A stretch of 64,000 nt of DNA from an uncultured virus (IMG/VR IMGVR_UViG_3300042878_001709). Taxonomy: Duplodnaviria > Heunggongvirae > Uroviricota > Caudoviricetes. Numbering within the stretch: the first letter of the stretch is position 1; each line of letters starts with the position of its first letter. Made by a program: the position numbers and the translations under genes. A model generated the notes under the pieces. The model worked only from the letters and a program-made list of their open reading frames with translations. It searched no databases and was not told the origin of the DNA. Below are positions 4,909-45,550 of the stretch, piece by piece. The DNA lies in the IMG/VR virus record IMGVR_UViG_3300042878_001709, positions 1-64,000 of that record; one strand, 5' to 3'.

Positions 4909-6894
4909 ATGAAAAAACTATTATTAATTTTATCATTACTATTTTATTCTGGGGTAAAATCACAATGTAATCAATATTTAATTTATGAAAGTTTTACTAA
5001 TACATTAACAACACAAGGTGGAACTTGGGCGGTTAATTCCATCCTAGCTTCAACAACTGTTAGAACTGGTGGATATTCTGCTGGATTTAATGGATCTGGT
5101 GATTGGATTAGGACCCCACAAATTACAAATCCAAGTATCCTTTCTTTTTGGTACAGAAGAAGTACCAACACAACTGCTTGGACTCTTAATGTACAAACTT
5201 CACCTAATGGGACAACTTGGACAACAAGGGGTACAGTAACATCCCCAACAACAACCTATCAACAATATACTCTAAATATCGGAGCTTTAGGTTTAACAAA
5301 TGTGTTTATTAGATTAATTGACGCAAGAGCCTCTGGGGCACAAGAAAGATACATTGACGATTTAGGGATAACATCTACCGTAACAAATCAAAACACACTA
5401 ATACCATTTTTAGGAAATTGTAGTCAAACTTTAACATCATCACTTACATATACAATAACTGATGCAGGTGGACCTACTGATACCTATAACAATAATTTAG
5501 ATCAAACAGTAACTTTAACACCGTCTGATAATACAAAAAAATTACAATTAAATTTTACGTCATTTAATTTAGAGGCAAGTTATGATTATCTATATGTTTA
5601 TGATGGTCCAAATACAAGTTCTACTTTATTGGCTACATTAAATGGAACATCTTTACCATCAACAATAACTGCAGAAAATGCGTCAGGACAACTAACTTTA
5701 AGATTCACTTCAGATGTTAATGGTATTAGGGTTGGGTTTCAGGCAACAGTAACATCGGTAACAGTTTGTACAACTCCGACAAATGGAGGAACATTAAGTT
5801 CAGATAAAATTTTAACAACAGTGAATGATGCCGTTTCTTTAACTACTACAGGTAATGGTGGAACAATTACAAAAATTGAATTCTCTTATGATAATTTTGG
5901 TACGGTTAGTAATACATTCGTTACCCCAACTAACCCTTTTAATATTCAATTAAACGTACAACAACCAAACATCTATTTTAGAACAACATCTAAAGATGGT
6001 ACTTGTCCCTCTGGTACATCAAATATTGTAAATGTAACATTAAAAAGTGCACCACCATATTCATCAGGAATTGTTGACGGTGATCATATTACTAATGTAA
6101 CTTTTAGTGACATTAATAATACAACTACTAATGATGGTGATGCCTATTCTGATTACACCTCTATCATTGGGAATGTCACAAAAGGTGAACCTTATAATTT
6201 ATCTGTTACTGCATCAAATACATTATCACCAGGTCAAGGTTATGGTGCTTGGATCGATTGGAATGGGGATGGTATATTTCAGACATCTGAGAATGTTTTA
6301 TTAACACCAACTGCAAATTCAACATCACAATCAATAACAATTCCCTCAGATGCCGTAACAGGAGATGCCATTATGAGAGTCCTTTCAGTTTGGAATTCAA
6401 CTCCAAACGTTGATGCATACTATTCAACTGGTTATGGATATGGTGAAATTGAGGAGTATACTATAAGAATATCTAACCCTATATCATTACCTGTAGAGCT
6501 AATTGAATTTGTGGGACACCCTTATCAACAATATAATGTGATAAAGTGGACAACTGCATCTGAACATAATTCTAGTTACTTTGATTTGGAAATGAGTTTA
6601 GATGGGGTTATTTGGAAAACCATTTCAATTAAAGAGGCGGCGTATAATAGTAACACAGAAATAAAATATTCTTTCATTGATTACAACCTAAACGAATTAA
6701 CTTATTATAGATTAAACCAATATGATATAGACGGTCAATTTAAAGTATATGAACCAATAACTGTATTTAGACAAATCAAAGATAAAAAAATTGTCAAATA
6801 TATAAATTTATTAGGTCAAGAAGTTGATCAACAAACTAAAGGTTTATTGTTAGAAATTTACGATGACGGAACAATTAGAAAAATAATTAATTAA
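4909..6894 (+). CDS. secreted protein with signal peptide, CUB and GEVED domains and Bacteroidota T9SS-cargo-like C-terminus
   Basis: MKKLLLILSLLF; FNLEASYDYLYVYDG (CUB); AWIDWNGDG...GEIEEY (GEVED); LPVEL...WTTASE..YYRLNQYDIDG; NLLGQEV..YDDG. Confidence 0.8.
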   Translation: MKKLLLILSLLFYSGVKSQCNQYLIYESFTNTLTTQGGTWAVNSILASTTVRTGGYSAGFNGSGDWIRTPQITNPSILSFWYRRSTNTTAWTLNVQTSPNGTTWTTRGTVTSPTTTYQQYTLNIGALGLTNVFIRLIDARASGAQERYIDDLGITSTVTNQNTLIPFLGNCSQTLTSSLTYTITDAGGPTDTYNNNLDQTVTLTPSDNTKKLQLNFTSFNLEASYDYLYVYDGPNTSSTLLATLNGTSLPSTITAENASGQLTLRFTSDVNGIRVGFQATVTSVTVCTTPTNGGTLSSDKILTTVNDAVSLTTTGNGGTITKIEFSYDNFGTVSNTFVTPTNPFNIQLNVQQPNIYFRTTSKDGTCPSGTSNIVNVTLKSAPPYSSGIVDGDHITNVTFSDINNTTTNDGDAYSDYTSIIGNVTKGEPYNLSVTASNTLSPGQGYGAWIDWNGDGIFQTSENVLLTPTANSTSQSITIPSDAVTGDAIMRVLSVWNSTPNVDAYYSTGYGYGEIEEYTIRISNPISLPVELIEFVGHPYQQYNVIKWTTASEHNSSYFDLEMSLDGVIWKTISIKEAAYNSNTEIKYSFIDYNLNELTYYRLNQYDIDGQFKVYEPITVFRQIKDKKIVKYINLLGQEVDQQTKGLLLEIYDDGTIRKIIN

Positions 6895-7927: not shown

Positions 7928-8098
7928 ATGAGTAAAGAACAAATTTTAGGTTTAATTAGACATTCACTAACCGCAATTGGTGGTGCAGTAGTTATGTTAG
8001 GTTATTTTGACGAAGCTTTAGTAACTGAAATTACAGGTGGAATAATGACTGCAGTAGGTTTTATATGGTCATACATTGATAAAGTTAAAAAATCCTAA
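7928..8098 (+). CDS. small 2-TM putative holin (56 aa, not in ORF track)
   Basis: MSKEQILGLIRHSLTAIGGAVVMLG...GGIMTAVGFIWSYIDKVKKS; ATATTTAT upstream, terminator downstream. Confidence 0.6.
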   Translation: MSKEQILGLIRHSLTAIGGAVVMLGYFDEALVTEITGGIMTAVGFIWSYIDKVKKS

Positions 8099-24571: not shown

Positions 24572-24961
24572 ATGAAAAAGATAGTTAGATTAACAGAAAC
24601 AGATTTAAGAAGAATCGTAAGAAGGGTATTAATGGAAGACGAAAACCAAAACGTTTTTGATGATAATTATTTTACCACAAATAAAAAAGGAAAAATAGAA
24701 TTTAATCCTTCTGTTGGGTATCCGAGTGTATCCAAAGTAAATGGTTTATCCGCTTTGGATATGTCATCAAAAAATACAGAACCATTTGATGAGTACTGGG
24801 AAGTACAGTCAAATCCTGAAAATATTAGTTCAATAAAAGGCAATAACCAATTTGATTATACATATGATGGTGACTTTATTAATTTAATACCAAGTTCAAC
24901 AAATCCTGGTTTAAAAAATTGGAAGAAGGATTCAATGTCAATTAGGTATTACCCAAAATAA
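24572..24961 (+). CDS. leader-tagged hypothetical protein
   Basis: MKKIVRLTETDLRRIVRRVLME. Confidence 0.7.
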   Translation: MKKIVRLTETDLRRIVRRVLMEDENQNVFDDNYFTTNKKGKIEFNPSVGYPSVSKVNGLSALDMSSKNTEPFDEYWEVQSNPENISSIKGNNQFDYTYDGDFINLIPSSTNPGLKNWKKDSMSIRYYPK

Positions 24962-24980
24962 TATTTTTAAAATTTATATT

Positions 24981-25012
24981 ACCCCCATTCCTAATAAGAG
25001 TGGGGGTTTTTT
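24981..25012 (+). terminator. intrinsic terminator
   Basis: ACCCCCATTC/GAGTGGGGGT plus T-run. Confidence 0.8.
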
Positions 25013-25154
25013 ATTCTTCAATATATAGGTTTGTTCAGTGACAATGAACACCCATTTCTGGTGAACGGTGTATAGGGCTAAAAAATTTTTCAAGTAAATT
25101 TTTTAGTTTCAAATATTTTATCTACATTTGTTCTATATAGTATATTTATTTAAT

Positions 25155-25469
25155 ATGAAAAATGTGATAAAAAAAATATTAAAAGAAGAGGTAGATAATA
25201 GAATCTCTAGAGAAGATTATTTAAACAAGATTTTAGATATTCTTGTAGATGATACTATCATCGATTTTGATGAAAATCAAATGATATATCCATTCCTTCC
25301 TCTCCATCGTTTCTTCCCCTCTCTCCTTCTTCCCCTTTCCCTCTCTCTCCCCCACTTCCCCTTCTCAAAATATTGTAAAGATAGTTATGGGTTAACTGAG
25401 AATGAAATAGATTATGTGTGGGAAGAATACAGAAATATAATAAATGAAAAAATTAAAAATAGACATTAA
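25155..25469 (+). CDS. leader-tagged single-unit repeat-domain protein with C/T-rich variable insert
   Basis: MKNVIKKILKEE; insert 25289-25366. Confidence 0.85.
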   Translation: MKNVIKKILKEEVDNRISREDYLNKILDILVDDTIIDFDENQMIYPFLPLHRFFPSLLLPLSLSLPHFPFSKYCKDSYGLTENEIDYVWEEYRNIINEKIKNRH

Positions 25470-25557
25470 TGAATCTATGACGAATAAAGAAAAAAGTAAG
25501 GGGGGTGTGATTATAAAAAAAATTTGTCAGTTTAAAAATTATAGTATATTTATATAA

Positions 25558-26127
25558 ATGAAAAGGATTATTAGGGAAATATTAAAAGAAGAGGTAGATA
25601 ATAGAATCTCTAGAGAGGATTATTTAAACAAGATTTTAGGATATCTGGTAGAAGATACAATTATAGATTTTAAAGAAAATGAAATTTTATTTCCCTCCTT
25701 ACCCTCCTCTTCTCTCCTCTTATCTTCTTTGTTTCTCTTCCCCTCCTCACCCTTCTCTGAATATTGTAGAGATAATTATGGTTTAACTGAGAATGAAATA
25801 GATTATGTGTGGAAAGAATACAGAAATATAATAAATGAAAAAATGGAAAACTCGAATTCCATTAATGAATCTATGGGTAGAAAATCTGATTATTTAAACA
25901 ACATTGTTGGGTACATTGTGGATGATACAATTATAGATTTTGATGTAAATCAAATGCGATTTCCCTTTTACTCTCAACTCTATCCCCTCCTCGTTCCCCG
26001 TCTCTCTCCCACCACATCCTTCTCTGAATATTGTAGGGATAATTATGGATTAACAGATGAAGAGATAGATTATGTGTGGAAAGAATATAGAATTATAATA
26101 AATGAAAAAATAAGTGAACTCACATAA
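25558..26127 (+). CDS. leader-tagged two-unit repeat-domain protein with C/T-rich variable inserts
   Basis: MKRIIREILKEE; inserts 25690-25758 and 25960-26025. Confidence 0.85.
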   Translation: MKRIIREILKEEVDNRISREDYLNKILGYLVEDTIIDFKENEILFPSLPSSSLLLSSLFLFPSSPFSEYCRDNYGLTENEIDYVWKEYRNIINEKMENSNSINESMGRKSDYLNNIVGYIVDDTIIDFDVNQMRFPFYSQLYPLLVPRLSPTTSFSEYCRDNYGLTDEEIDYVWKEYRIIINEKISELT

Positions 26128-26128
26128 T

Positions 26129-26185
26129 AGTTGTCCGACCGAACTGTTCCTTCACCCCAACCCCTCTAAATGAGATTTTTTATTT
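26129..26185 (+). repeat. 57-bp intergenic direct repeat, copy A
   Basis: 52/57 identical to 29723-29779. Confidence 0.9.
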
Positions 26186-26218
26186 TATTATATATTTATA
26201 TAATAATAAAATTATAAT

Positions 26219-26632
26219 ATGAAAAAGATAGTAAGATTAACAGAAACAGATTTAACAAGAATTGTTAGAAGAGTTATAAAAGAAAATGAAATGTATTCAG
26301 ACTTTGGTGATTTATCTGGAGATGAACTTGATTCTCATATGAGAAGGGAAATGGAAGATAGGGTTAAGGGTGATGAATACACTTATTATGATCCTACAAG
26401 GGGGGAACATCCTTATGGTGGAAGATATGTTAATGACAGTGGATGGTGGGACACACATAACCGTCCAGAGTATTCGGGTGAATGGGAGGATTATGAGTTT
26501 GGTGATTTCACCGAATTAAAAAGAAGTGATATTCCGAATGAAAATTTTAGAAAATTAAGAACCAGAAGAGATTTTGATACAATGAAAAATCCTGATACTG
26601 GTAAAGTTCATATTAGAAAAAGAAGATATTAA
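26219..26632 (+). CDS. leader-tagged hypothetical protein
   Basis: MKKIVRLTETDLTRIVRRVIKE, nearly the leader of 24572 on an unrelated body. Confidence 0.7.
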   Translation: MKKIVRLTETDLTRIVRRVIKENEMYSDFGDLSGDELDSHMRREMEDRVKGDEYTYYDPTRGEHPYGGRYVNDSGWWDTHNRPEYSGEWEDYEFGDFTELKRSDIPNENFRKLRTRRDFDTMKNPDTGKVHIRKRRY

Positions 26633-26681
26633 AATAATTACAAAGTAGAAAAATGTAAACTTTAGTTATTTCAAATTTATT

Positions 26682-26709
26682 ACCTCATCAGAAATGGTGG
26701 GGTTTTTTT
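26682..26709 (+). terminator. intrinsic terminator, near-identical to 36881-36908
   Basis: acctcatcagaaatggtggggttttttt. Confidence 0.75.
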
Positions 26710-26750
26710 ATTTTAATTTTTAAGTTTCTAAATATATTAATATTTATATT

Positions 26751-29291
26751 ATGAATATGGAGGATAATAAAAAAATATATTTAGATAAGATTCTTAAGTG
26801 GTTTGTTGATGATACTATAATTAGATATGAAACGGGTGTTATAATATATCCTTTTTCTCCGATAGGTCCGAATGGTAAACCTTTACCTAGTTTTATCGAT
26901 GATTTAAAAAATAAACTTTCGTGGGGTATGCCTTCAGATGTTCAGATAACTTGTAGGGATACATATGGTTTAAATTACGATGAGACAAAATATATATGGG
27001 ACAACTATAAAACCATTATTAAGGATAGATATAATAAAGAATCTATTATGTATGATCTTAAACCCATTAATGAATCTATGGATAATAAAAAAAGATATTT
27101 AGATAAGGTTGTAGATTTTCTTGTAGAGGACACTAAAGTGGACCATGAAAATAGGATGATATTTTTTCCTTTTACATATAAGAGATCACTTAGACAAGGT
27201 AGTCGTAATCTCACACCTTTTCACAGACTTCTTTTTGATACATATATCCCTATAGACGGTTTTATGGAATACATTGATGAATCATTTGGAATTACTTCAG
27301 AAGAGGGTATTGTTTATGTATGGGAGTCCTATAAGGTTATTATGAGGGATATTGTATTTGGTAATAGTGCCAGTCCACTCTACTTTAACGAATCAGTGGA
27401 TAAAATTTCTAAAGGTGAATATATAGATAAAATTATAGATTACCTTGTGGATGATACTATGGTGGATCAAAAGAATAAAGTGTGGAATCCACCTTTTCCT
27501 ACTGATCACGCTAAACCTACTTTTAATCATTTCTATGGTCTAATACCTATGGCAGATCATTTAGAATTAAAATTTCTTATTGGTAATTCTTATGTAAGAA
27601 ACTTTTTTAACTATTGTAAAGACACGTATGGATTGACAGATGATGAGGAAATAAGAAAATTATGGAAAAGATATCTTAAAGTTTTAACTCCTAAAATTAA
27701 TGGGTTTTCTATCATTAATGGTATACCCACCATTAATGAATCTGTAGATAGAAAATCTGATTATTTGGATAAGATTGTGGAATTTCTTGTAGTTGATACG
27801 GAAATATCTATGGGAGAAGGAGATTTTGGAATTTTTAAACCATCGTTTGCATCTATATGGTTTTCTACAGTCTACTTAAAAAAAATATCTGATGATATGT
27901 TGGAAAGAAACTTTTTTAACTATTGTAAAGATAGTTATGGGTTAACTAATTCAGAAGTAAAAAGGGTGTGGAGTAAATATAAAAAAAATATCCTTAATAT
28001 ATTTAAAGTCCCCATTAATGAATCAGTGGATAGAAAGGATGATCTAATAGATAAGATTTCTGATTATATGGTAGACGATACCGAATATGAACTTAGTATT
28101 TCCCAATATAATGTCGATTCTACAGAAATTTTTGTCTATATAAGGTATCCTTATTCTGCACAAGACTCTGGATTCCCTTATACTATATATGAGGTATCTA
28201 CTATTAAGGAATCGAGTGAATATATCCTTAATAGAGTGGAGATTGAATATATGTGGGATGTGTACAATATACGTAGTGTAAAAACCATAGAAGATATATT
28301 TAAAAAATACACTGAGAAATTATTCACTAAAATATACGATGATATGTTAAGGGTTAAAGGTAATAATATAAATGAATCTGTAGATAGAAAATCTGATTAT
28401 TTGGATAAGATTGTAGATTTTATGATAGACGATACCGAATATAATATTTACATTAATAGGTTTAGTGATCATTCAGAAACTAAAGTAGAAATATGGTACC
28501 CTTTTACTAATCCTGATGAGGATGTGGATGCATATGATTATAGTATATATGATATTTATGATTGGTCAAATGGTAGTGGTTTTAATTTAGATGAAGGAGA
28601 AGATATAGATTATATTTGTAACACTTATAGTATATGTGATATAGATACTGTACAAGAGTTATATGATAGATACATACAAAAATTATCTACTATTATATAT
28701 GAAGAAATGTTATTAAAAAAGAATGGTGATAGACTTAATGAATCTGTGAATAGAAAAGATGAATATCTGGATAAGATTGTGGAGTTTCTTGTAACTGATA
28801 CAAAAGTTTTGGTTAATGACGATGTATTCTTCGCACCTTTTTACCGTCTATCTTCTTTAAGTTTTAATTTACTTTTTTATAAAGGTGATTATCCCGCTTC
28901 TTTTCATAGGTATTGTAGAGATGTGTATGGAATAAATAGTGATGATATTAAATATGTATGGGATACATATAAAAATATAATTAAAGATAAATTTAATAAT
29001 TCTGGTAATATTAATGAATCTGTGGATAGAAAAGATGAATATCTAGATAAGATTGTGGGATTTATTGTAGATGATACGGAAATAACTATAGAAAAGAATG
29101 ATAAAAGTTTTAAACCACCGTTTACATCTGTATGGTTTTCTCCATTATACTTAAAATTAATGAGTGACTCTCAGTTGGAGATTAATTTTTTAACCTATTG
29201 TAAAGATACTTACGGGTTAACTAATTCAGAAATAAAAGTTGTGATCTCTAAATATAGAAAAACTATCCTTAATAAATTTAAAGGTTCTTAA
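26751..29291 (+). CDS. repeat-domain protein, 8 units joined at (I/L/F)NES
   Basis: Eight (L/I)DK(I/V)...DT units; 44-bp identical junctions 27735-27778 and 28371-28414. Confidence 0.9.
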   Translation: MNMEDNKKIYLDKILKWFVDDTIIRYETGVIIYPFSPIGPNGKPLPSFIDDLKNKLSWGMPSDVQITCRDTYGLNYDETKYIWDNYKTIIKDRYNKESIMYDLKPINESMDNKKRYLDKVVDFLVEDTKVDHENRMIFFPFTYKRSLRQGSRNLTPFHRLLFDTYIPIDGFMEYIDESFGITSEEGIVYVWESYKVIMRDIVFGNSASPLYFNESVDKISKGEYIDKIIDYLVDDTMVDQKNKVWNPPFPTDHAKPTFNHFYGLIPMADHLELKFLIGNSYVRNFFNYCKDTYGLTDDEEIRKLWKRYLKVLTPKINGFSIINGIPTINESVDRKSDYLDKIVEFLVVDTEISMGEGDFGIFKPSFASIWFSTVYLKKISDDMLERNFFNYCKDSYGLTNSEVKRVWSKYKKNILNIFKVPINESVDRKDDLIDKISDYMVDDTEYELSISQYNVDSTEIFVYIRYPYSAQDSGFPYTIYEVSTIKESSEYILNRVEIEYMWDVYNIRSVKTIEDIFKKYTEKLFTKIYDDMLRVKGNNINESVDRKSDYLDKIVDFMIDDTEYNIYINRFSDHSETKVEIWYPFTNPDEDVDAYDYSIYDIYDWSNGSGFNLDEGEDIDYICNTYSICDIDTVQELYDRYIQKLSTIIYEEMLLKKNGDRLNESVNRKDEYLDKIVEFLVTDTKVLVNDDVFFAPFYRLSSLSFNLLFYKGDYPASFHRYCRDVYGINSDDIKYVWDTYKNIIKDKFNNSGNINESVDRKDEYLDKIVGFIVDDTEITIEKNDKSFKPPFTSVWFSPLYLKLMSDSQLEINFLTYCKDTYGLTNSEIKVVISKYRKTILNKFKGS

Positions 29292-29779: not shown

Positions 29780-29831
29780 GGAGCATAAAAAAAGGTCCCT
29801 AAGAACCTTTTATTATTTAATGTTGGTAGAT

Positions 29832-30431
29832 TTATTTAATGTCGTTAGATTTAATTAACGTATAACTAAATGAGTTACCATGAATCGCTTTGGCTTTTCT
29901 ACAAATTTTCATAAATTCTTCGAAGTCTGCAGACTTTTTAAATACTTGACATCCTTCGGACCAATTCTCAACGTATGTTGAATCGGCACCTGCTTTGTGG
30001 ATGTTTATACCAAATACTCCTTCGGCAATTTTTTTCTCATCATAGATTAAATCTTTGTTTGCGTCTCTATATACTTTAACGTTTTTTTGTTGACCTAACG
30101 CTTCATATTTACCTTGATGTAATCTAATTGTGTGAGATCCTCTATATTGACCCTCAACCAATCTTGCAACACCATCTTTATTATGGTATTCCATAACACC
30201 TTTTTTACCTGGGTCAGTAGTTGCAGGCCATTCGTGATATTTCCATGTGTTGGTTTCATCTTTATAACTTAACGTTAATAAGTCATCAAACACGTTAGTC
30301 ACTTTTTGACCAGTACTATAATTTCTAATACCGATAATGTTTACATCATACCCTTTGTTGTTTGAGTCCTCAAACCAAACATAACCTTTGGCTTTCACGG
30401 CAGCCTCAACCTGTTCTTTTGTATAGTTCAT
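29832..30431 (-). CDS. YkuD/L,D-transpeptidase-like putative peptidoglycan enzyme
   Basis: GINIHKAG...NWSEGCQV resembles the H...SxGC catalytic motif. Confidence 0.55.
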   Translation of the reverse strand: MNYTKEQVEAAVKAKGYVWFEDSNNKGYDVNIIGIRNYSTGQKVTNVFDDLLTLSYKDETNTWKYHEWPATTDPGKKGVMEYHNKDGVARLVEGQYRGSHTIRLHQGKYEALGQQKNVKVYRDANKDLIYDEKKIAEGVFGINIHKAGADSTYVENWSEGCQVFKKSADFEEFMKICRKAKAIHGNSFSYTLIKSNDIK

Positions 30432-30507
30432 AATTTTAATTTTTTTATAAATATGAAAAAATTAATTAAAGTAAATAGTTTTTAATATTTTTTCCATATT
30501 TATTTGT

Positions 30508-32127
30508 ATGAATTATCGTTTAAGAATAAAAATAACATTAGCCATCGCATCCATTTTAATGGTTGCTTATATGTGTGTTAAAATTGCAGTCCTTTCAGGG
30601 TTACGAGAATCTACAGAAACTACACGATGGATAGAATTTTTTGGTGTTATTTCACTTATTCCCATATCTATATTATTAATTAAAGACTTTATTAATTCCA
30701 CTAAAGATTCAGTATCTAAAGAATCAGTAGATAAGTTGGTTGAATTAGAAAATTTCTTAAATTCTTCTTCCATTATATCTAAAGCCGATGCAAAAGGAAA
30801 GATTACATACGTAAATCAAAAATTTACCGAAATTTCAGGTTATTCATTAGAAGATGTTATTGGTAAAGATCACAATATTGTAAATTCTGGAACACACCCA
30901 CGAGAGTTTTGGTCTAATATGTACAAAACTGTTGTTGTGGATAAGGGTCTTTGGAATGAGGTTTGTGTCAATCGGGCAAAAGATGGAAGTCTTTATTATG
31001 TGGATACTTTTATTAAATGTAGTTTTGATGAAAACGGTAAACTGTTAGAGTTTATGTCAATTCGTCAAGACTTGACTTCTTTAAAAAAGACTGAACAAGA
31101 AATATCAAATAGAATGAATGCAATTAACAGATCAAATGCTGTTATTGAATTTGACTTAGAGGGTAACATAAAATTTGCAAATGATTTATTCTTAAGTACT
31201 TTAGGTTATGATTCGCACGATGAACTTGTTGGAAAACACCATAGTATATTTGTTGAAGATGAGTTAAAAGACTCTGAAGGATATTTGAATTTTTGGAACA
31301 CTTTAAAAGATGGACATTTCTTTATGGGTGAAATCATTAGAAAGAAAAAAGACGGATCTTTAATATATCTCCAAGCAACATACAATCCTATCATAGGTAC
31401 AGACGGTAAACCCTATAGAGTAATGAAAATTGCTACTGACATCACCCAAAGTATTAATCAACAAATGGAAATTGAAAAGAAAAATACCTATTTAGAACAT
31501 GCAGCAAAGATATTAAGACACGATATGCATTCAGGTATCAATACTTATATGCCAAGAGGATTGAGTTCTTTAGAAAGAAGATTAACTCCTGAAGATATTA
31601 AATCATTAAAAATTGAAGCACCAATTAGAATGATTAAAGAAGGTTTAAAACATTCTCAAAAAGTATATAAAGGTGTTTATGAGTTTACCAATTTAGTTAA
31701 AAAAGACGTTGTTTTAAATAAATCGGAGTGTAACCTAAAAAGTATACTTATTGATTACCTATCATCCACTGCATATATTAGTCAAGTTATTATTGATGAG
31801 TTACCGATTATCGAGGTAAATGAAGCTTTATTCTGTACTGCAGTTGACAACTTAATCAGGAATGGTTTAAAGTACAATGATTCTGACACTAAGTTTGTTA
31901 AAATATATTCTGATGAGAATACTGTTTACATTCAAGATAATGGTAGGGGGTTAACACAAGAAGATTTTGATTACCTATGTAAACCATATACAAGAAAAGA
32001 AGGACAAAAAGAATCAGGTACTGGTTTGGGATTAAATATTTGCGTTGCAATTTTGGAAGAACACAAGTTTAAAATTACTTGTGAGAAAAATGAAATAGGA
32101 ACTAAAATGAAAATAAAAATAAAATAA
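30508..32127 (+). CDS. membrane PAS-PAS sensor histidine kinase
   Basis: Two N-terminal TM; PAS (GKITYVN..F...SGYS; NAVIEFDLEG...ATYNPI); RHDM H-box; NLIRNGLKY, DNGRG, GTGLGL. Confidence 0.92.
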   Translation: MNYRLRIKITLAIASILMVAYMCVKIAVLSGLRESTETTRWIEFFGVISLIPISILLIKDFINSTKDSVSKESVDKLVELENFLNSSSIISKADAKGKITYVNQKFTEISGYSLEDVIGKDHNIVNSGTHPREFWSNMYKTVVVDKGLWNEVCVNRAKDGSLYYVDTFIKCSFDENGKLLEFMSIRQDLTSLKKTEQEISNRMNAINRSNAVIEFDLEGNIKFANDLFLSTLGYDSHDELVGKHHSIFVEDELKDSEGYLNFWNTLKDGHFFMGEIIRKKKDGSLIYLQATYNPIIGTDGKPYRVMKIATDITQSINQQMEIEKKNTYLEHAAKILRHDMHSGINTYMPRGLSSLERRLTPEDIKSLKIEAPIRMIKEGLKHSQKVYKGVYEFTNLVKKDVVLNKSECNLKSILIDYLSSTAYISQVIIDELPIIEVNEALFCTAVDNLIRNGLKYNDSDTKFVKIYSDENTVYIQDNGRGLTQEDFDYLCKPYTRKEGQKESGTGLGLNICVAILEEHKFKITCEKNEIGTKMKIKIK

Positions 32128-32139
32128 AAAAAGAAAAAA

Positions 32140-32577
32140 ATGATTGATTCAATTTTATTGGTGGATGACGAGGATTTATTCCATTTAGTATTTGAAGATG
32201 CTTGTTCATTACTTGACATAAGTTTGTCTTTAAATGCGTTAAATAGTTCTGACGAAGCAGCAAAACTATTTCAAAATTGGTTCCAAAGTGGGGACGATAA
32301 TGATAAACCTGAATGTGTGTTTGTTGATTTAAATATTATTGGTAGTTCTTTTGATGGGATAGAATTAATTAGAAAAATTAATTTTGAATACGGTAATCAC
32401 GTAGTTGTTGGAATTATTTCATCATCAAACGAACCAGAAGAACAATCAAAGGCAGTTCAAGCGGGAGCTCAGTTTTGGATTATCAAATCTGACGACATTG
32501 AGCCACGTTTAGAGGAGTTCAGAAAAGATTATGAAGGTTATAAAAATAGAACCTTACCTTTCAAAGTATATAAATGA
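32140..32577 (+). CDS. single-domain response regulator (receiver only)
   Basis: LLVDDED, VFVDLN (phospho-Asp), DGIELI, ISSS, IIK. Confidence 0.9.
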   Translation: MIDSILLVDDEDLFHLVFEDACSLLDISLSLNALNSSDEAAKLFQNWFQSGDDNDKPECVFVDLNIIGSSFDGIELIRKINFEYGNHVVVGIISSSNEPEEQSKAVQAGAQFWIIKSDDIEPRLEEFRKDYEGYKNRTLPFKVYK

Positions 32578-33254
32578 TAAAGTTAGATAAAAATAGTGAA
32601 AACAATTTAATTAAACTCTTTGAGTCCAAGAATATCGGACTTGAAGGAAACATTATTAAGTTGTTTGAATCGGACAACGATTTGTTTAAAGACTATTTAA
32701 AAAAATGTACGGATAAAGATAAAGATTCTAGACGTAAACGTTTGGAGGTAACCAAACAGGTTCAGGTTCAGAACAAAGATTTGACTATACTCAACGATGA
32801 AAACCAAAGAATGGTGGAGGAACTCCAAAATACTTTAACCAGTATGGAGGATCAAAACAATCGGATTGAAAGTCAAAACTCTGAACTTCTTGAATGGAAA
32901 CTAGAGAATGAAAAAATAAGTGCCGAACTGGTTGAGGCTATGAAACAATCTGAACAGGCAAGAGTCGTTGCAGAAAATGCCAAAAATGAGGCAGAAAACA
33001 ATTTAGATTTAATTCAAAAGAAAACTCAGTTTGAGTTGATTAATAATATTGTTAAGGTTGCACTTTATGTAATTATAGGTGTTGGGTGTGTCACAACGGG
33101 AATATATGTTTATTCTATGACAATAGGAAAGGATACTGAGATTATTGGATCCACTTGGAGTAATATGTTTGGTATTCTGTTAACAAATAGTTTCAGTATA
33201 GTGGGGACAATACTTGGGGTAAAATATGGTGCAAGTCCTAACAAAGATAAATAA
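32574..33254 (+). CDS. coiled-coil protein with two C-terminal TM helices
   Basis: Q/E/N-rich heptads, then VALYVIIGVGCV and MFGILLTNSFSIVGTILGV. Confidence 0.75.
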   Translation: MIKLDKNSENNLIKLFESKNIGLEGNIIKLFESDNDLFKDYLKKCTDKDKDSRRKRLEVTKQVQVQNKDLTILNDENQRMVEELQNTLTSMEDQNNRIESQNSELLEWKLENEKISAELVEAMKQSEQARVVAENAKNEAENNLDLIQKKTQFELINNIVKVALYVIIGVGCVTTGIYVYSMTIGKDTEIIGSTWSNMFGILLTNSFSIVGTILGVKYGASPNKDK

Positions 33255-33263
33255 TAAAAAAAA

Positions 33264-33746
33264 ATGAAAAAAATGGTAAGTAGATTAAAAAAAATGTTAT
33301 TCGGGGAAACTCCTTATGTTAAAGTGGAGGATAAAAATCGTTTCTATTATATGTTGCAACAAATGCAATCTAATAGATGGAAGATTACAGGGATTATTTT
33401 ATTCTTGTTTTTCTTCATTATTTTTGGTATTAATATGGCAGTTATGTTTCAAATTGAAATTGCAGAAAACTGGAAAGAAATGTTGTTAATTTTATTCGGG
33501 GCCTTCGTAGGTAATCTTAATAAAGTTGTTGATTATTGGTTCAACTCTGAAGACAGAGATAAGATGTTAATTCAGAAAGTTGATGAGGAAGACGGAAATA
33601 GTTTTTCTAATGTTGCGGAATATCCGACAACACCAAGACCACCACAAGGATCAACTGTTGTAGATACACAAGTTAAAGAAGAAACTCCTTTGGTTGTTGA
33701 GGAGTACCCTACAGAAGAATCATCGGTAGATGGTGAAATAAACTAA
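33264..33746 (+). CDS. 2-TM membrane protein, holin-like
   Basis: Two TM, FGAFVG...VVDYWFNS, acidic tail; directly upstream of the endolysin. Confidence 0.55.
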   Translation: MKKMVSRLKKMLFGETPYVKVEDKNRFYYMLQQMQSNRWKITGIILFLFFFIIFGINMAVMFQIEIAENWKEMLLILFGAFVGNLNKVVDYWFNSEDRDKMLIQKVDEEDGNSFSNVAEYPTTPRPPQGSTVVDTQVKEETPLVVEEYPTEESSVDGEIN

Positions 33747-33774
33747 GAAGATGAGAATATTTAATTAAAATAAG

Positions 33775-33802
33775 AACCCAGTTAAAATACTGGGTTTTTT
33801 TT
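33775..33802 (+). terminator. intrinsic terminator closing the kinase operon
   Basis: AACCCAGT/ACTGGGTT plus T-run. Confidence 0.8.
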
Positions 33803-33868
33803 ATTACATATATTCACTAAAAAAAGATTTAAAATATTTTTAGAATATTTATTATAAAATTAAAGGTT

Positions 33869-34693
33869 ATGTTATTAAAAAATGGGTCTAAAGGAGAAGA
33901 CGTAAAAAAACTCCAAACAAAATTAGGTCTTACTGCGGATGGATCATTCGGACCCGGAACAGAAAAAGCGGTAAAAGAATGGCAATCGGCTAATGGATTA
34001 ACCTCAGATGGTGTTGTTGGTGACGGAACATGGTTAAAAATGTTTGGGTCAACCGTAATAATAAAAGAAGATGTTGTAATTCCTTCAGGTGGGTCATTAA
34101 ATATTGAAAAATTAAAGGGTCATATACCTGATTCTGTCATTGCACAGATTCCTGAGACTGCAAAAAAGTTTAATATTACAAATAACTTACGTTTAGCTCA
34201 CTTTTTAGCTCAATGTGGTCACGAATCAGGTGGTTTTAAGGCAGTTTCAGAGAATTTAAACTATTCTGCGGACGGTTTGAAGAAAATATTTGGTAAATAC
34301 TTTCCAGGTAACTTAAATGAGTCATATGCACGTCAACCTGAGAAGATTGCGGCTCGTGTTTACGCAAGTAGAATGGGTAATGGTGACGAAACTACCAAAG
34401 AAGGGTTTAAATTTAGAGGTAGAGGGTATATTCAGTTAACTGGTAAGTCAAATTACACTAATTTTACCAAATTTATCGGTGAAGATTGTGTTTCTAACCC
34501 TGATTTGGTTGCGACTAAGTATCCATTGGCATCTGCGGCGTTCTTTTTTGATTCTAATAAGTTATGGAGTATCTGTGACAAAGGTGCGGACGATTCAACA
34601 GTAACCGCAGTCACAAAAAGAGTAAATGGGGGTACAATTGGTTTACCTGATAGAATAAAACACTTCAAAGAGTACTATAACTTACTTAAGTGA
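33869..34693 (+). CDS. endolysin: peptidoglycan-binding domain plus GH19 domain
   Basis: GSKGEDVKKLQ..DGSFGPGT..WQ..GL..DGVVG; AHFLAQCGHESGGF, FRGRGYIQLTG, VNGG..GL.DR. Confidence 0.92.
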   Translation: MLLKNGSKGEDVKKLQTKLGLTADGSFGPGTEKAVKEWQSANGLTSDGVVGDGTWLKMFGSTVIIKEDVVIPSGGSLNIEKLKGHIPDSVIAQIPETAKKFNITNNLRLAHFLAQCGHESGGFKAVSENLNYSADGLKKIFGKYFPGNLNESYARQPEKIAARVYASRMGNGDETTKEGFKFRGRGYIQLTGKSNYTNFTKFIGEDCVSNPDLVATKYPLASAAFFFDSNKLWSICDKGADDSTVTAVTKRVNGGTIGLPDRIKHFKEYYNLLK

Positions 34694-36932: not shown

Positions 36933-38549
36933 GTGGATAATAGAAAAAAAGAATATTTGGATAAAATAATTATGTATCTTTTTGAAGATACGGATTTTGA
37001 ATATATACCTGAAGACAAAGAATGTAGTATTGTAGTAGATACTCATTTCACTACAGATTGTTTTGATGATTGGAGATGTTATGATCACACTCTAATTCAA
37101 GATTTTTGTGTGGAAGATTATGGGTTAACAGTAGATGAAGTTAAATACGTGTGGAGGGAATATAATAAAATGATTTACCATAAAGTAGGAGAGATAGTAG
37201 TTAATAATACTAATAGAAATATTAATGAATCTATAAATGATGATAATTACTCCCAAAAGGTAGTAAGTGTTATGAAACCCCCTTATATTGAGGACTTAAG
37301 GATGTTCAAAATACCTACCGATAAATGGTTAGATGTATTTTCATTACTTTTTAATAAAGATAAAAATTTTTTAGAAATAGATAGAAATATAAATAGTGAG
37401 GCAACAATTATATCTATTAATATCCCTACTAACCCACCTAAACTTCCTTTATACGTTGAGTGGGATAATGGTCCGTGGACATTAAGAGATTACGATGAAA
37501 TGGGGAATATGATATATTATGAAGAGAGTGATGGGTACTGGGAAAAATATGAATATAATGATAAGAGTGTGCCCACATATTATGAAAACTCTGATGGTTA
37601 TTCAGATGATTACATTGAAAATAATCTTAACGAATCTATAAGTGATAAAGAAAATTTTATAATAGATAAGATTGTAAATTTTATGTTAGAAGATACTAAC
37701 TATAAAATTAAAACTATTAAAGACGAACCAGTTGTTAGAATAGTATATCCCTTTTATGGGGAAGAACAAGTTTATACTGAGGATCGGAACGGAATAGATT
37801 ATCATTTAATTTTTATGGATGGTTGGTCAGTTGGTACTGATGACTATACATATATGAACGATCAATTCGGTATTACCAATAAAAATATTATACAAGAGAT
37901 TTTCAATAAGTATAACTTAGTATTATTTACTCAATTGAAAAAAGAAATAGAAGGTAAGATGGGGAGAAGTAATATTAACGAATCAGTAGAAATTAATAAC
38001 AGATTTTTAGATAAGGTTGTAGAATCTTTAATTGGGGGTACAAGTATTGTCCCTAAATTACAAATGATAGTGTACCCATCGATAAATTTTTATTCTTCAC
38101 GTATGTCTTTATTATTACCAAGTAAAGTATTTTATAATGAATTTTCAGACTACTGTGAGAAACATTATGGTACAACTTCAGATGAATTTGATATTATATG
38201 GAAAAAATATAGTAAGATTATGTTCGATAAATTTGACAAAGGGGAGAATATTTTAAAAGAATCTGATGATAGGAGAAAAAATTATTTAGATAAAGTTTTA
38301 GAGTTTATTTTATCTGACACACATATTACTTCTTATACTTCTTGGGAGTGGGTGAATATAGAAGTACCGTTTACTGATTTACAATATAGTAGAATGAGAC
38401 ATTTTGATCTCTTTAACTTTGTTAATTATTGTAGAGATAACTACGGATTAACTAAAGACGAATCATATAGTGTATGGGAAGATTACATTAACGAAATAAA
38501 TCAAACACTAATCAATGAATGGGGTGTACAGGATCCCATATATCATTGA
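36933..38549 (+). CDS. mixed repeat-domain protein (4 type-A units plus 1 type-B unit)
   Basis: Junctions INES, LNES, INES, LKES; type-B unit KPPY...YYEESDGYW. Confidence 0.85.
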   Translation: MDNRKKEYLDKIIMYLFEDTDFEYIPEDKECSIVVDTHFTTDCFDDWRCYDHTLIQDFCVEDYGLTVDEVKYVWREYNKMIYHKVGEIVVNNTNRNINESINDDNYSQKVVSVMKPPYIEDLRMFKIPTDKWLDVFSLLFNKDKNFLEIDRNINSEATIISINIPTNPPKLPLYVEWDNGPWTLRDYDEMGNMIYYEESDGYWEKYEYNDKSVPTYYENSDGYSDDYIENNLNESISDKENFIIDKIVNFMLEDTNYKIKTIKDEPVVRIVYPFYGEEQVYTEDRNGIDYHLIFMDGWSVGTDDYTYMNDQFGITNKNIIQEIFNKYNLVLFTQLKKEIEGKMGRSNINESVEINNRFLDKVVESLIGGTSIVPKLQMIVYPSINFYSSRMSLLLPSKVFYNEFSDYCEKHYGTTSDEFDIIWKKYSKIMFDKFDKGENILKESDDRRKNYLDKVLEFILSDTHITSYTSWEWVNIEVPFTDLQYSRMRHFDLFNFVNYCRDNYGLTKDESYSVWEDYINEINQTLINEWGVQDPIYH

Positions 38550-38588
38550 TTTAATAAAAAAAAATTTTTACCTTTATATAAAATAAAC

Positions 38589-38837
38589 ATGACAGAAAGA
38601 GAAATACAACTATTGGGTTTTAGTAAAGAAGAAATGAAAGAACATGATGAAGATGATACCTATTACTATGCGTTGGACATAGTAGATGGTTTGACATTCA
38701 TTACTAGATCAAATGACGAAATAATAACTGATGAGTGGTATGTTGATGTTTTTAATACTGATCCAAATATTAGATTCTATTCTTTTGAGGAGTTACAAAG
38801 TCTGATTAATTTATTAATTAGTAGAATTGTAAAATAA
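38589..38837 (+). CDS. hypothetical protein
   Basis: 82 aa ORF. Confidence 0.6.
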   Translation: MTEREIQLLGFSKEEMKEHDEDDTYYYALDIVDGLTFITRSNDEIITDEWYVDVFNTDPNIRFYSFEELQSLINLLISRIVK

Positions 38838-38899
38838 TAAATCTATTCGTATCTACATTTATATTTTTGTTTTTATACGATATTTATTTAAAAACATAT

Positions 38900-39613
38900 A
38901 TGAGTGTTAGAAACATACAATATTTGAATAGGATTGTTGATTTTTTAGTAGATGATACTGAAATTGTCTATAATCATAGACAGTTTTTTATCTCTGGTGA
39001 TGGTGATAAAAAAATTATGAACACCCCATTTGGTGCTTTAGGTTGGGAATATTTTTTAAGGAATCAAGGAACACCTTACATTTTATTTGTAGAATATATT
39101 GAAAATAATTATGGGGTTGCCCGATCAGAGGTTAGATATGTATGGGATAGGTATGTTTCAAAATTAAAAGATAAAAGGTATGGCGGTAATATAGAAACTA
39201 TTACTGAAAGTATTACCTCACATCACCAATGGATGATGGGTAACCCATCAGATTTTTTAAAACTTGATGGTGTTAGTGAGGATCTAAAACAAAAATTAAT
39301 TAAAATTATATATCAAACTGTTGGTAGTATTTTAGAAAGTATGACATATGAACTAGATGAACAAAATCCAACTTTATATGTAGTAAAAATACATGATTTT
39401 CAAAATTCATATGGGTTATACTTAGAAAATGATGGTACTGTATCGTCATTTGAGAAATTTTGTAACACATATATGGATTATATCCTTAAAGAAATGTTAG
39501 CAATATTTAGGGAGTATACATATAAAAATCCTTCGATAGTAACAAGTTTTGGTTTAGGGTCAACGGTTTTATTAATGAATAAGATGGGAGAAATTTTTAT
39601 AAATGAACAGTAG
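38900..39613 (+). CDS. repeat-domain protein (type-A unit plus second domain after ITES)
   Basis: YLNRIVDFLVDDT...YGV..EVRYVWDRY; start moved to ATG 38900 behind ATATTTAT. Confidence 0.75.
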   Translation: MSVRNIQYLNRIVDFLVDDTEIVYNHRQFFISGDGDKKIMNTPFGALGWEYFLRNQGTPYILFVEYIENNYGVARSEVRYVWDRYVSKLKDKRYGGNIETITESITSHHQWMMGNPSDFLKLDGVSEDLKQKLIKIIYQTVGSILESMTYELDEQNPTLYVVKIHDFQNSYGLYLENDGTVSSFEKFCNTYMDYILKEMLAIFREYTYKNPSIVTSFGLGSTVLLMNKMGEIFINEQ

Positions 39614-40211
39614 AATAGAAAAATATTTAAATTATATCATTAATGATTTAATTGCCAACACGAAATTTCAAGAATCTCAATCTCTTGCCGATACGACATT
39701 CTTATTATTTTTTAAGTTACCTTGGAGTAACAGTAGAGCATTTACCGAAGCAAATATGAAAGGGATTTTACGATACGGTTCTATACCACTGGGATTAGTA
39801 GATTACCTCTATAATAATTATACGTTAGAAGATGATAATCAAATCGATTATGTATGGGAAAAATATAAAGATTTTTTAATAGATATTGTTTATAATAAAA
39901 AAACTATTAACGAATCGGACGATAGAATGGTTACGTATTTAGATAAGATATTAAATATTCTTGAAGATGATACCTATCAAGTTAACTCTTCAGTATTAAA
40001 GGTACCTTTTTTTGTCAATAGTATTTCGTTAAGATATAGTAGTAATGAGAATATAGATATCCTATATTTATTAAACCTAGAAACCCCACCACCAAAATTC
40101 GTTAGTTATTGTTTCGATATGTTTAATATTGAGGGTAAAAATCTTAAAATATTATGGGATAACTATAGATTATTCTTAGGTGATTTTGTCACTAATAATA
40201 CAAGATATTAA
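39603..40211 (+). CDS. two-unit repeat-domain protein
   Basis: YLNYII...YVWEKY; INESDD..YLDKIL..DDT...YC. Confidence 0.75.
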   Translation: MNSRIEKYLNYIINDLIANTKFQESQSLADTTFLLFFKLPWSNSRAFTEANMKGILRYGSIPLGLVDYLYNNYTLEDDNQIDYVWEKYKDFLIDIVYNKKTINESDDRMVTYLDKILNILEDDTYQVNSSVLKVPFFVNSISLRYSSNENIDILYLLNLETPPPKFVSYCFDMFNIEGKNLKILWDNYRLFLGDFVTNNTRY

Positions 40212-44776: not shown

Positions 44777-45550
44777 ATGAAAAAAAGAATAGTTAGATTA
44801 ACAGAAAGTCAATTAAGTAAGATAGTTAAAAGTGTCTTAAATGAGGCTTACACTGGTATTATACAAATAGGTGATGATTTATGTGAAATAATATGTAAAA
44901 GAAAGTTAGCAATGTACGGATCAAACGGTGACGTTGTTAAAATGATTCAACATTTATTATATGTAAACCAATTTAATACTAAGTACAGTGGTGGTGGTAT
45001 GAATGGTGATTGGTGTTATTCTGATTGGACGAAATGTGATGGAGTATTTAAAAACCAAACTAAAGGGGCAGTAGAAGAGTTTCAAAACAAATTTGGGTTA
45101 ACTGCTGACGGTAAAGTCGGGTTTAATACTTGGCAAATGATGTGTAAAAAATTGTCATTTTCTAAATCACTACCTAAACCAAAATTTTGTACTGAATGTA
45201 ATTGTCAAGATGACAAAGATTGGCAAGATGACAAAGATTGGCAAGATGATTATATTATCGATCCCATAAAAATTATAGATTCAGTTGATTGTGAAAATTT
45301 AAAAGACTGTGTTAAAAAATATATATTTAGTGTTACAGCTCCTGATTTTAAAGGATTTGAGTTTTGTTTAAGAGGTAATAAAAAAGAAAGTGGAAAAGAT
45401 TTATCTTGTAGTCTTTGTAGTAAAACATTTACAACTGGAGATATTAATAAAATGCCTTCTACAGGTATACCTACTGAGGAACAAAAAAGAATTAAAGCTT
45501 TAGGTGATTGGTGTATCAAAAATTGTGATGGGTATAAAGCAACATACTAA
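44777..45550 (+). CDS. leader-tagged Cys-rich protein with peptidoglycan-binding domain
   Basis: MKKRIVRLTESQL; GDVVKMIQ..L; DG.F..T..AV..FQ..GLTADGKVG..T; 18-bp tandem repeat (QDDKDW). Confidence 0.75.
   Translation: MKKRIVRLTESQLSKIVKSVLNEAYTGIIQIGDDLCEIICKRKLAMYGSNGDVVKMIQHLLYVNQFNTKYSGGGMNGDWCYSDWTKCDGVFKNQTKGAVEEFQNKFGLTADGKVGFNTWQMMCKKLSFSKSLPKPKFCTECNCQDDKDWQDDKDWQDDYIIDPIKIIDSVDCENLKDCVKKYIFSVTAPDFKGFEFCLRGNKKESGKDLSCSLCSKTFTTGDINKMPSTGIPTEEQKRIKALGDWCIKNCDGYKATY

Follow-up and report, generated by a model that had tools for sequence, protein, structure and literature searches.

A phage-encoded kinase-receiver-coiled-coil signalling unit with two undescribed domains and a possible role in lysis timing

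In staphylococci, two-component systems such as LytSR-LrgAB/CidAB and SrrAB read the energy state of the cell and govern holin-like membrane proteins and lysis; these systems are host-encoded and act transcriptionally through DNA-binding regulators. For phages, most of what is known about regulated lysis timing comes from T4-type lysis inhibition, in which an antiholin responds to superinfection. In T4, with holin T and the antiholins RI and RIII (PMC11413866), and in phage ICP1, with TeaA/ArrA (PMC7182436), a periplasmic antiholin binds the holin upon superinfection, with neither a kinase nor a phosphorelay. A jumbo-phage survey (PMC7824862) reports, in its accessible part, only a divergent receiver that was never found with kinases, and the literature we searched, with closed journals and supplements outside its scope, held no description of a phage-encoded kinase-receiver-membrane relay. 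Here we describe a block of six genes (29832..34693) in a window of 64,000 nucleotides, the whole stretch of DNA that was analysed, which covers positions 1 to 64,000 of the uncultured-virus record IMGVR_UViG_3300042878_001709 in IMG/VR. Its core is a phage-encoded histidine kinase, a bare receiver and a coiled-coil membrane protein, hereafter CC. We conclude that these three genes form a real, selected and phage-specific signalling unit with two undescribed domains, and that lysis timing is the most likely output of the relay, a reading worth about an even bet. If so, T4 and ICP1 lysis inhibition would be functional analogues, as phage-encoded, post-translational and signal-dependent timing of lysis at the membrane, whereas the phosphorelay would set this block apart from both. 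Anatomy, intact catalytic sites, purifying selection, receiver/N-domain pairing, heptad phasing and domain fusions can be read directly from the sequence.

All six open reading frames (ORFs) of the block were confirmed, one on the minus and five on the plus strand. As the first-pass annotation had proposed, four plus-strand genes form an operon: a 539-amino-acid (aa) histidine kinase (30508..32127), a 145-aa single-domain receiver (32140..32577), the 226-aa CC protein (32574..33254) and TM, an optional 160-aa membrane protein with an acidic tail (33264..33746), are packed with a 12-nt gap, an ATGA overlap and a 9-nt gap and are closed by a terminator-like hairpin with T-runs on both strands (33772..33799, plus strand). 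The motif ATATTTAT, previously placed at 30497, is indeed present ahead of the kinase and spans 30496..30503 (plus strand), one base off. The operon is flanked by a divergent YkuD-motif gene encoding a 199-aa putative peptidoglycan peptidase (29832..30431, minus strand; an optional neighbour), which is closed by its own terminator-like hairpin (29790..29811, minus strand), and by a 274-aa endolysin (33869..34693, plus strand). Both flanking genes share the motif, as had been noticed, at 30447..30454 (minus) and 33845..33852 (plus).

The catalytic sites of the kinase and the receiver, already described as intact, proved to be strongly conserved. The kinase comprises two hydrophobic segments, two PAS domains (PAS-A and PAS-B), a helix carrying the phospho-acceptor H338 and HATPase_c (Pfam and hydropathy; PF02518, E 3e-14). 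Across 117 related kinases, conservation reaches at least 95% at H338 and at N452, D477-N-G and G506-L-G-L, which mark the N, G1 and G2 boxes, and PDB matches to kinase cores span residues 358-531. The H-box (RHDMHSG) had no match to Pfam HisKA and is therefore atypical. In the receiver, D9, D10, D63, S94 and K116 are invariant in 55/55 sequences, PF00072 is the only domain, the tail is invariant as well (F141-K142-x-Y144), and the protein has a net charge of -15. The H, N, G1 and G2 boxes and a complete receiver without an output domain are shared with bacterial pairs of a kinase and a CheY-like regulator. Unlike those pairs, the phage genes have an H-box that escapes the HisKA model and a fixed third gene with two undescribed domains, and they were found on contigs that are viral or phage-like. 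What is new is this third gene with its pair of domains; the kinase and receiver are ordinary.

Synteny across relatives showed that the conserved unit (triad) consists of three genes, kinase, receiver and CC, and not of four. Using the receiver to select 80 viral loci, we found the N-terminal domain of CC (N-domain) in 80/80 and its C-terminal membrane hairpin in 79/80. With the N-domain as query in metagenomes, the receiver was found directly upstream in 76/80 loci, and the other four have less than 90 bp of upstream sequence. TM is an optional member of the proposed four-gene block: at 40 distinct CC loci with 2.5-kb flanks it comes after CC in only 7; the YkuD-motif gene is found in 10, a GH19 or peptidoglycan (PG)-binding gene in 26 and a second kinase in 10. 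The block genes are under purifying selection, with ratios of nonsynonymous to synonymous substitution rates (dN/dS) of 0.03-0.27 in 27/34 gene pairs; the remainder comprise three saturated and two identical pairs, a paralogous kinase (0.40) and a near-identical pair (0.72). The block is also a mosaic: one relative (L008) has near-identical CC, TM and lysin with a 71% identical kinase, and conversely in two others (L009, L016) the kinase is 92% and CC 65% identical, with TM absent. Inter-protein covariation, computed on 55 paired sequences, yielded noise, its top-ranking pairs being scattered over all CC regions, and mirror-tree correlations did not separate the N-domain from the hairpin (0.54 vs 0.48). 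Extra ORFs lie between kinase and receiver in L042/L048 (155 aa), L180 and L228; by eye, the 155-aa insert resembles a homing-endonuclease fragment.

The coiled-coil protein with two membrane helices that had been described from the first reading was borne out: CC carries a heptad-phased coil and a two-helix membrane hairpin. A structural model (pLDDT 86, pTM 0.35) contains a small N-domain (about residues 1-70), a long helix spanning 36-184 and another at 188-219. Neither Pfam, PHROGs nor NCBIfam held a significant family for CC, a Foldseek search of the model against PDB folds returned nothing at E <= 0.001, and viral sequences make up 94-100% of the CC clusters in the ESM Atlas. The coil joining N-domain to hairpin ranges from 23 to 79 residues in length and varies in steps of seven in 53/55 aligned sequences (73/74 matched rows out of 92 in a motif-based count), which would fit a signal-carrying coiled coil and not a plain spacer. 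In helix 2 of the hairpin, N197, T204, N205, S208, G211, T212 and G215 are invariant on one face, and this polar and small face seems fit for lining a pore or for a tight packing surface.

Domain fusions suggest how these parts are used. The N-domain heads HisKA-HATPase kinases in the input position (P0250, P0252, P0271-P0273; five 90% clusters, 10 sequences), and the hairpin also occurs behind PAS or GAF domains (P0181, P0182, P0270, P0144). The PAS-hairpin fusion is a natural one, seen in 79 viral loci (59 distinct proteins), and N-domain and receiver were absent from the fetched flanks in 79/79. These swaps indicate that the N-domain is likely an input that needs and reads the receiver, and the hairpin an output that lives in lysis cassettes. 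On this comparison, a wiring that runs from the receiver through N-domain and coil to the hairpin is well supported, if unproven. The neighbours of the N-domain-kinase fusions were not found in GTDB, and the metagenome search for them returned triads only. No longer fusions (397-2000 aa) of CC residues 1-110 were found, and a viral scan with the divergent P0136 gave no match. CC parts joined to FecCD, RNA polymerase, GT2, TsaD and SOUL (P0195, P0124, P0172, P0184, P0152) are single representatives, probably assembly chimeras, and were not considered further; the singleton P0162 was given no weight.

A role in lysis control is suggested by gene neighbourhoods and by domain fusions. An M15 or GH19 lysin lies within 1.2 kb in 73/79 PAS-hairpin loci (55/59 distinct proteins), and a small holin-like gene is present in 67/79, two of the four families being Phage_holin_4_1. 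These loci occur in several phage backgrounds unlike that of the window, some with a different portal family. For the triad, neighbours were counted across 29 lineages, obtained by grouping 102 fully flanked loci at 75% CC identity. GH19 is the most frequent neighbour (18/29 lineages; mainly divergent upstream, 9, or downstream, 7), and a GH19, M15 or YkuD-motif gene is near the triad in 20/29. The lysin classes beside triads are GH19, YkuD-motif and GH108, with an M15 peptidase upstream at one locus (L243). The link to lysis is good in the case of the hairpin family and moderate in that of the triad.

The sensor part of the kinase points to redox as a candidate signal. PAS-A is nearest, among PDB structures, to MmoS (3EWK), NifL (2GJ3, 9QQ6) and Aer (8DIK), with E values of 3e-24 to 4e-13. 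PMC9668731 lists H53, M69, N85 and R115 as flavin-pocket residues of Aer, and in alignments to 8DIK and 3EWK their equivalents are kept in PAS-A (H122 in 61/62, M138 in 62/62, N155 in 62/62 and R186 in 60/62), as in the flavin adenine dinucleotide (FAD)-binding PAS sensors MmoS, NifL and Aer. PAS-A likely senses redox via a flavin whose binding we presume from this pocket. In contrast to those three proteins, the sensor here is phage-encoded and acts on neither a transcription factor nor chemotaxis. PAS-B is of the type that elsewhere is joined to hairpins; it has the Trp on helix F-alpha that marks FAD-binding PAS domains but not the pocket Asn. At L037:3466-4785, L038:6019-6663 and L210:2990-4423, a second type of kinase begins with a signal-peptide-like segment and carries an outer sensor (TPR in one case); an exported-looking coiled-coil protein usually precedes it, and this kinase may read the envelope or superinfection.

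Overall, these data suggest a model in which the kinase likely reads the redox or energy state of the infected cell through its PAS domains and phosphate likely passes from H338 to D63 of the receiver, which is predicted to bind the CC N-domain. Binding would shift the phase-locked coiled coil and thereby switch the membrane hairpin, which likely advances or delays lysis. The hairpin is most likely a gated pinholin-like depolariser or a holin-binding regulator, and lysis itself would be left to the GH19 enzyme and to a PF23987 holin encoded elsewhere. Post-translational control of lysis through the membrane proteins, as first proposed, thus finds comparative support in its idea of receiver contact, with CC alone as the probable partner. 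Because the hairpin is found fused directly to sensor domains in the lysis clusters of other phages, the relay likely tunes burst time to the state of the cell. Tentatively, and with rather less than even confidence, we can take this further to a new signal-gated channel as the output of the phosphorelay in large phages: the receiver would dock on the N-domain, a twist of the coil would open the hairpin, membrane potential would collapse and the holin would fire, with smaller phages using the one-piece PAS-hairpin. If this extension is true, the redox or energy state of the host would actively determine when these aquatic phages lyse it, and the N-domain would be a new receiver-reading input module used by kinases as well. 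A phage-owned kinase-receiver relay acting on a membrane effector would follow a different logic from lysis inhibition, in that the virus gauges host physiology and picks the moment of lysis. The small soluble parts and the one-gene PAS-hairpin versions allow direct testing.

Several findings weigh against this reading. Nine of the 29 triad lineages have none of the three lysin types searched (GH19, M15, YkuD-motif); when 60/81 neighbours of 11 lysin-less representatives were scanned with Pfam, one revealed a GH108 lysin and ten none. One divergent phage-like contig has its lysozyme ~50 kb from the triad. DnaK (labelled by eye) is near the triad in 12/29 lineages and a metallophosphoesterase in 10/29, which means that inherited synteny explains part of the adjacency of triad and lysin. 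The hairpin matched no holin family or fold, and neither CC nor TM showed resemblance to holin or antiholin families (Pfam, PHROGs, NCBIfam; Foldseek for CC); nor does CC have a T4-type layout, as its inter-helix loop is ~14 residues long and its soluble part is N-terminal. As to the signal, a Trp of helix F-alpha (W70 in Aer) is named the key FAD residue in bioRxiv 2023.04.23.537977. This diagnostic Trp of MmoS, NifL and Aer is replaced by Tyr139 in 62/62 PAS-A domains, so that membership of the FAD-PAS group is not clean. Moreover, 34/117 related kinases have no PAS match and the sensor part varies among relatives (2TM-PAS-PAS, GAF-PAS-PAS, TPR or exported sensors), and such free exchange of sensors argues against a single signal. 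Finally, cultured phages in GenBank gave no match to CC, the receiver or TM, and only partial matches of less than 60% identity to the kinase.

In uncultured phages the system is common, with an estimated ~650 stretches in IMG/VR matching the receiver and ~960 matching the hairpin. The first-pass annotation had raised the possibility that the block is frequent in bacterial chromosomes, which the scans did not bear out. A GTDB-wide pattern scan found the hairpin on only 8 contigs of metagenome-assembled genomes (MAGs), 4 with triads and 4 with PAS fusions, and all 8 were judged phage-like by their gene content, with no capsid gene identified on them. An N-domain profile found 0/401 genomes of the phylum of a Flavobacteriales MAG (3/3 positive controls were found), and 151 genomes of the same phylum held no close relative of the receiver. 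Two of the MAG contigs have GC contents of 48% and 66%, indicating that the triad reaches beyond AT-rich phages. One phage-like MAG contig (L407-L411, G004:C9) carries PrkA-SpoVR-DUF444, GroEL, UvdE and sigma-70 genes, and another (L412, G003:C75), that of 66% GC, has many genes with a common repeated N-terminal peptide.

How the hairpin is used could be explained differently. The main rival, in itself rather unlikely, is that the relay is wired as described and the hairpin serves another late membrane function, such as superinfection exclusion, upkeep of ions or the proton-motive force, or export of phage-encoded envelope proteins, its proximity to lysins reflecting the clustering of late membrane genes. 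The nine lineages without the three searched lysin types and the frequent unrelated neighbours would fit this view, as would the sharing of ATATTTAT by all late-type genes, the tie of TM to one CC subtype and otherwise to an exported-protein cassette, and the operons at 10/40 distinct loci that hold the second kinase with its signal-peptide-like start and a small exported-looking protein. However, it does not readily account for the 73/79 PAS-hairpin loci among lysin and holin genes in different phage backgrounds, nor for the different lysin classes that occupy that place. We regard as decidedly improbable that the signal runs in reverse or sideways, with CC as a membrane-anchored modulator, sink or phosphatase of the receiver and a host protein (for example of two-component systems or motility) as output. 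The receiver is far more conserved than CC (mean column identity 77% vs 54%), as might be expected if it had more partners, near-identical phages exchange kinase alleles, and the conserved polar residues T60, Q64 and N67 of the N-domain helix are reminiscent of receiver-phosphatase helices. Yet the hairpin is the only possible output in PAS-hairpin fusions, the N-domain sits in the input position in the kinase fusions, a mere anchor would need neither heptad phasing nor an invariant helix face, and a close receiver relative was missing from the 151 genomes of the phylum searched.

A fixed four-gene module, with TM as holin and CC as its receiver-controlled antiholin, appears very improbable. 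TM did enter this genome along with the CC allele found here, the TM core, which ends in a polar helix, is at least 95% conserved, and among 57 distinct TM homologues 21 follow CC and 5 the YkuD-motif lysin. Nevertheless, TM is missing from 33/40 distinct CC loci, and the other 36 homologues lie elsewhere, mostly within the exported-protein cassette. The description of TM as a holin-like protein with two membrane helices was not confirmed either: one hydrophobic segment is strong (Kyte-Doolittle 2.78) and the second marginal (1.32), Pfam, PHROGs, NCBIfam and the Atlas gave no holin family, and a recognised holin (PF23987) is encoded at 7928. A dual-start reading of TM was rejected, as an MKKM dual-start-like beginning was present in 1/57. 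Capture of a bacterial operon as a passenger without a phage role is largely refuted and retains hardly any weight: N-domain-kinase fusions of bacterial look exist, but the estimated ~650 viral receiver stretches, the viral Atlas clusters of CC, the purifying selection, the phage promoter motif and the mere 8 MAG contigs in GTDB all speak against it. The reading that we prefer remains the kinase-receiver-CC relay with lysis timing as output, and TM as an optional companion.

The motif that the flanking genes share gives no evidence of co-regulation with lysis. ATATTTAT precedes 48/150 ORFs, compared with 6.0 in shuffles; the genes for terminase, portal and prohead protease are among those behind it, whereas those for DNA polymerase and thymidine kinase are not. 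As it is genome-wide and ahead of such genes, it marks a late-type promoter and not a lysis regulon; it reads as the probable late promoter of the phage and assigns the kinase operon to the late class, nothing beyond. Among relatives, TATTTAT is located 5' of the first kinase in 36/42 distinct cases, of the receiver in 1/49 and of CC in 0/47. Matches to sigma-70 promoters were at chance level (27 vs 28).

The candidate downstream target of the relay is a 56-aa holin of the Pam3-gp28 family (PF23987; 7928..8098, plus strand), 22 kb from the block and likewise behind ATATTTAT. It scored 56.4 bits against a cut-off of 27 and, being 56 aa long, fell below our 70-aa ORF cut-off. In several related loci (such as L004, L009, L014, L028, L076), PF23987 homologues directly follow the GH19 gene. 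The GH19 endolysin described as a flank of the operon was recovered with its PG_binding_1 (PF01471) and GH19 (PF00182) domains and a match to phrog_181 at E 2e-66 (Pfam, PHROGs). L014:10233-10841 and 12 relatives encode, near the GH19 and holin genes, a 200-aa protein whose N-terminal TM helix is joined by what looks, by eye, like a GAF domain; it recalls the layout of T4 holin T, has no Pfam match and was not found in the contig of the window.

For the divergent gene, the YkuD-like label stood in part. It matches phrog_3000 and, at E 1e-10, the endolysin family phrog_33083, one relative is fused to PG_binding_1, and H145...S158-x-G160-C161 is invariant in 5/5 sequences. The pattern His...Ser-x-Gly-Cys is the catalytic motif of L,D-transpeptidases (YkuD). 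Pfam, NCBIfam and PDB gave no family or fold match, and a single-sequence model (pLDDT 42) was unusable.

TM and the CC hairpin have no detectable homology (BLAST E 0.88; hhalign probability 2.5%). A lysin lies within 3 kb in 14/57 distinct TM loci, in 4 of them just upstream of the exported-protein cassette. This cassette, with a cohesin and type IX secretion system (T9SS)-tail protein and unknowns, is conserved (L322:711-2609, L325:2624-2956, L293:3366-4085, L285:3344-4828); a CsgG label assigned by eye was not confirmed.

The source viral contig is 126,589 bp long with 29% GC, and the window is its first half. Its hallmark genes comprise terminase, portal, prohead protease, major head protein and DNA polymerase, and their PHROG families are of T4-like type. 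Close relatives on contigs of up to 322 kb indicate that the source is a partial large phage. The host is likely a member of the Bacteroidota; T9SS-tail proteins are present in relatives. TAnnTTTG, a promoter element according to PMC6847099, stands ahead of 21/150 ORFs (shuffles: mean 8.8, maximum 16), although the opposite strand gives 14, and Shine-Dalgarno words are not enriched.

Elsewhere in the window, a second gene with a peptidoglycan-binding-like segment and PHROG endolysin matches lies 10 kb from the block (44777-45550, plus strand). A 661-aa exported-looking protein with CUB and GEVED domains (4909-6894, plus strand) is followed by a gene that looks, by eye, like an extracytoplasmic function (ECF) sigma factor. 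An MKxIIRxILKEE-type motif recurs at the N-terminus of the products of many genes in two regions, 24572-29291 and 36933-40211. Several of these consist of tandem YLxKIxxFLVxDT...YCxDxYGLT units, among them an 846-aa protein, for which no significant family match was found, and a 538-aa protein.

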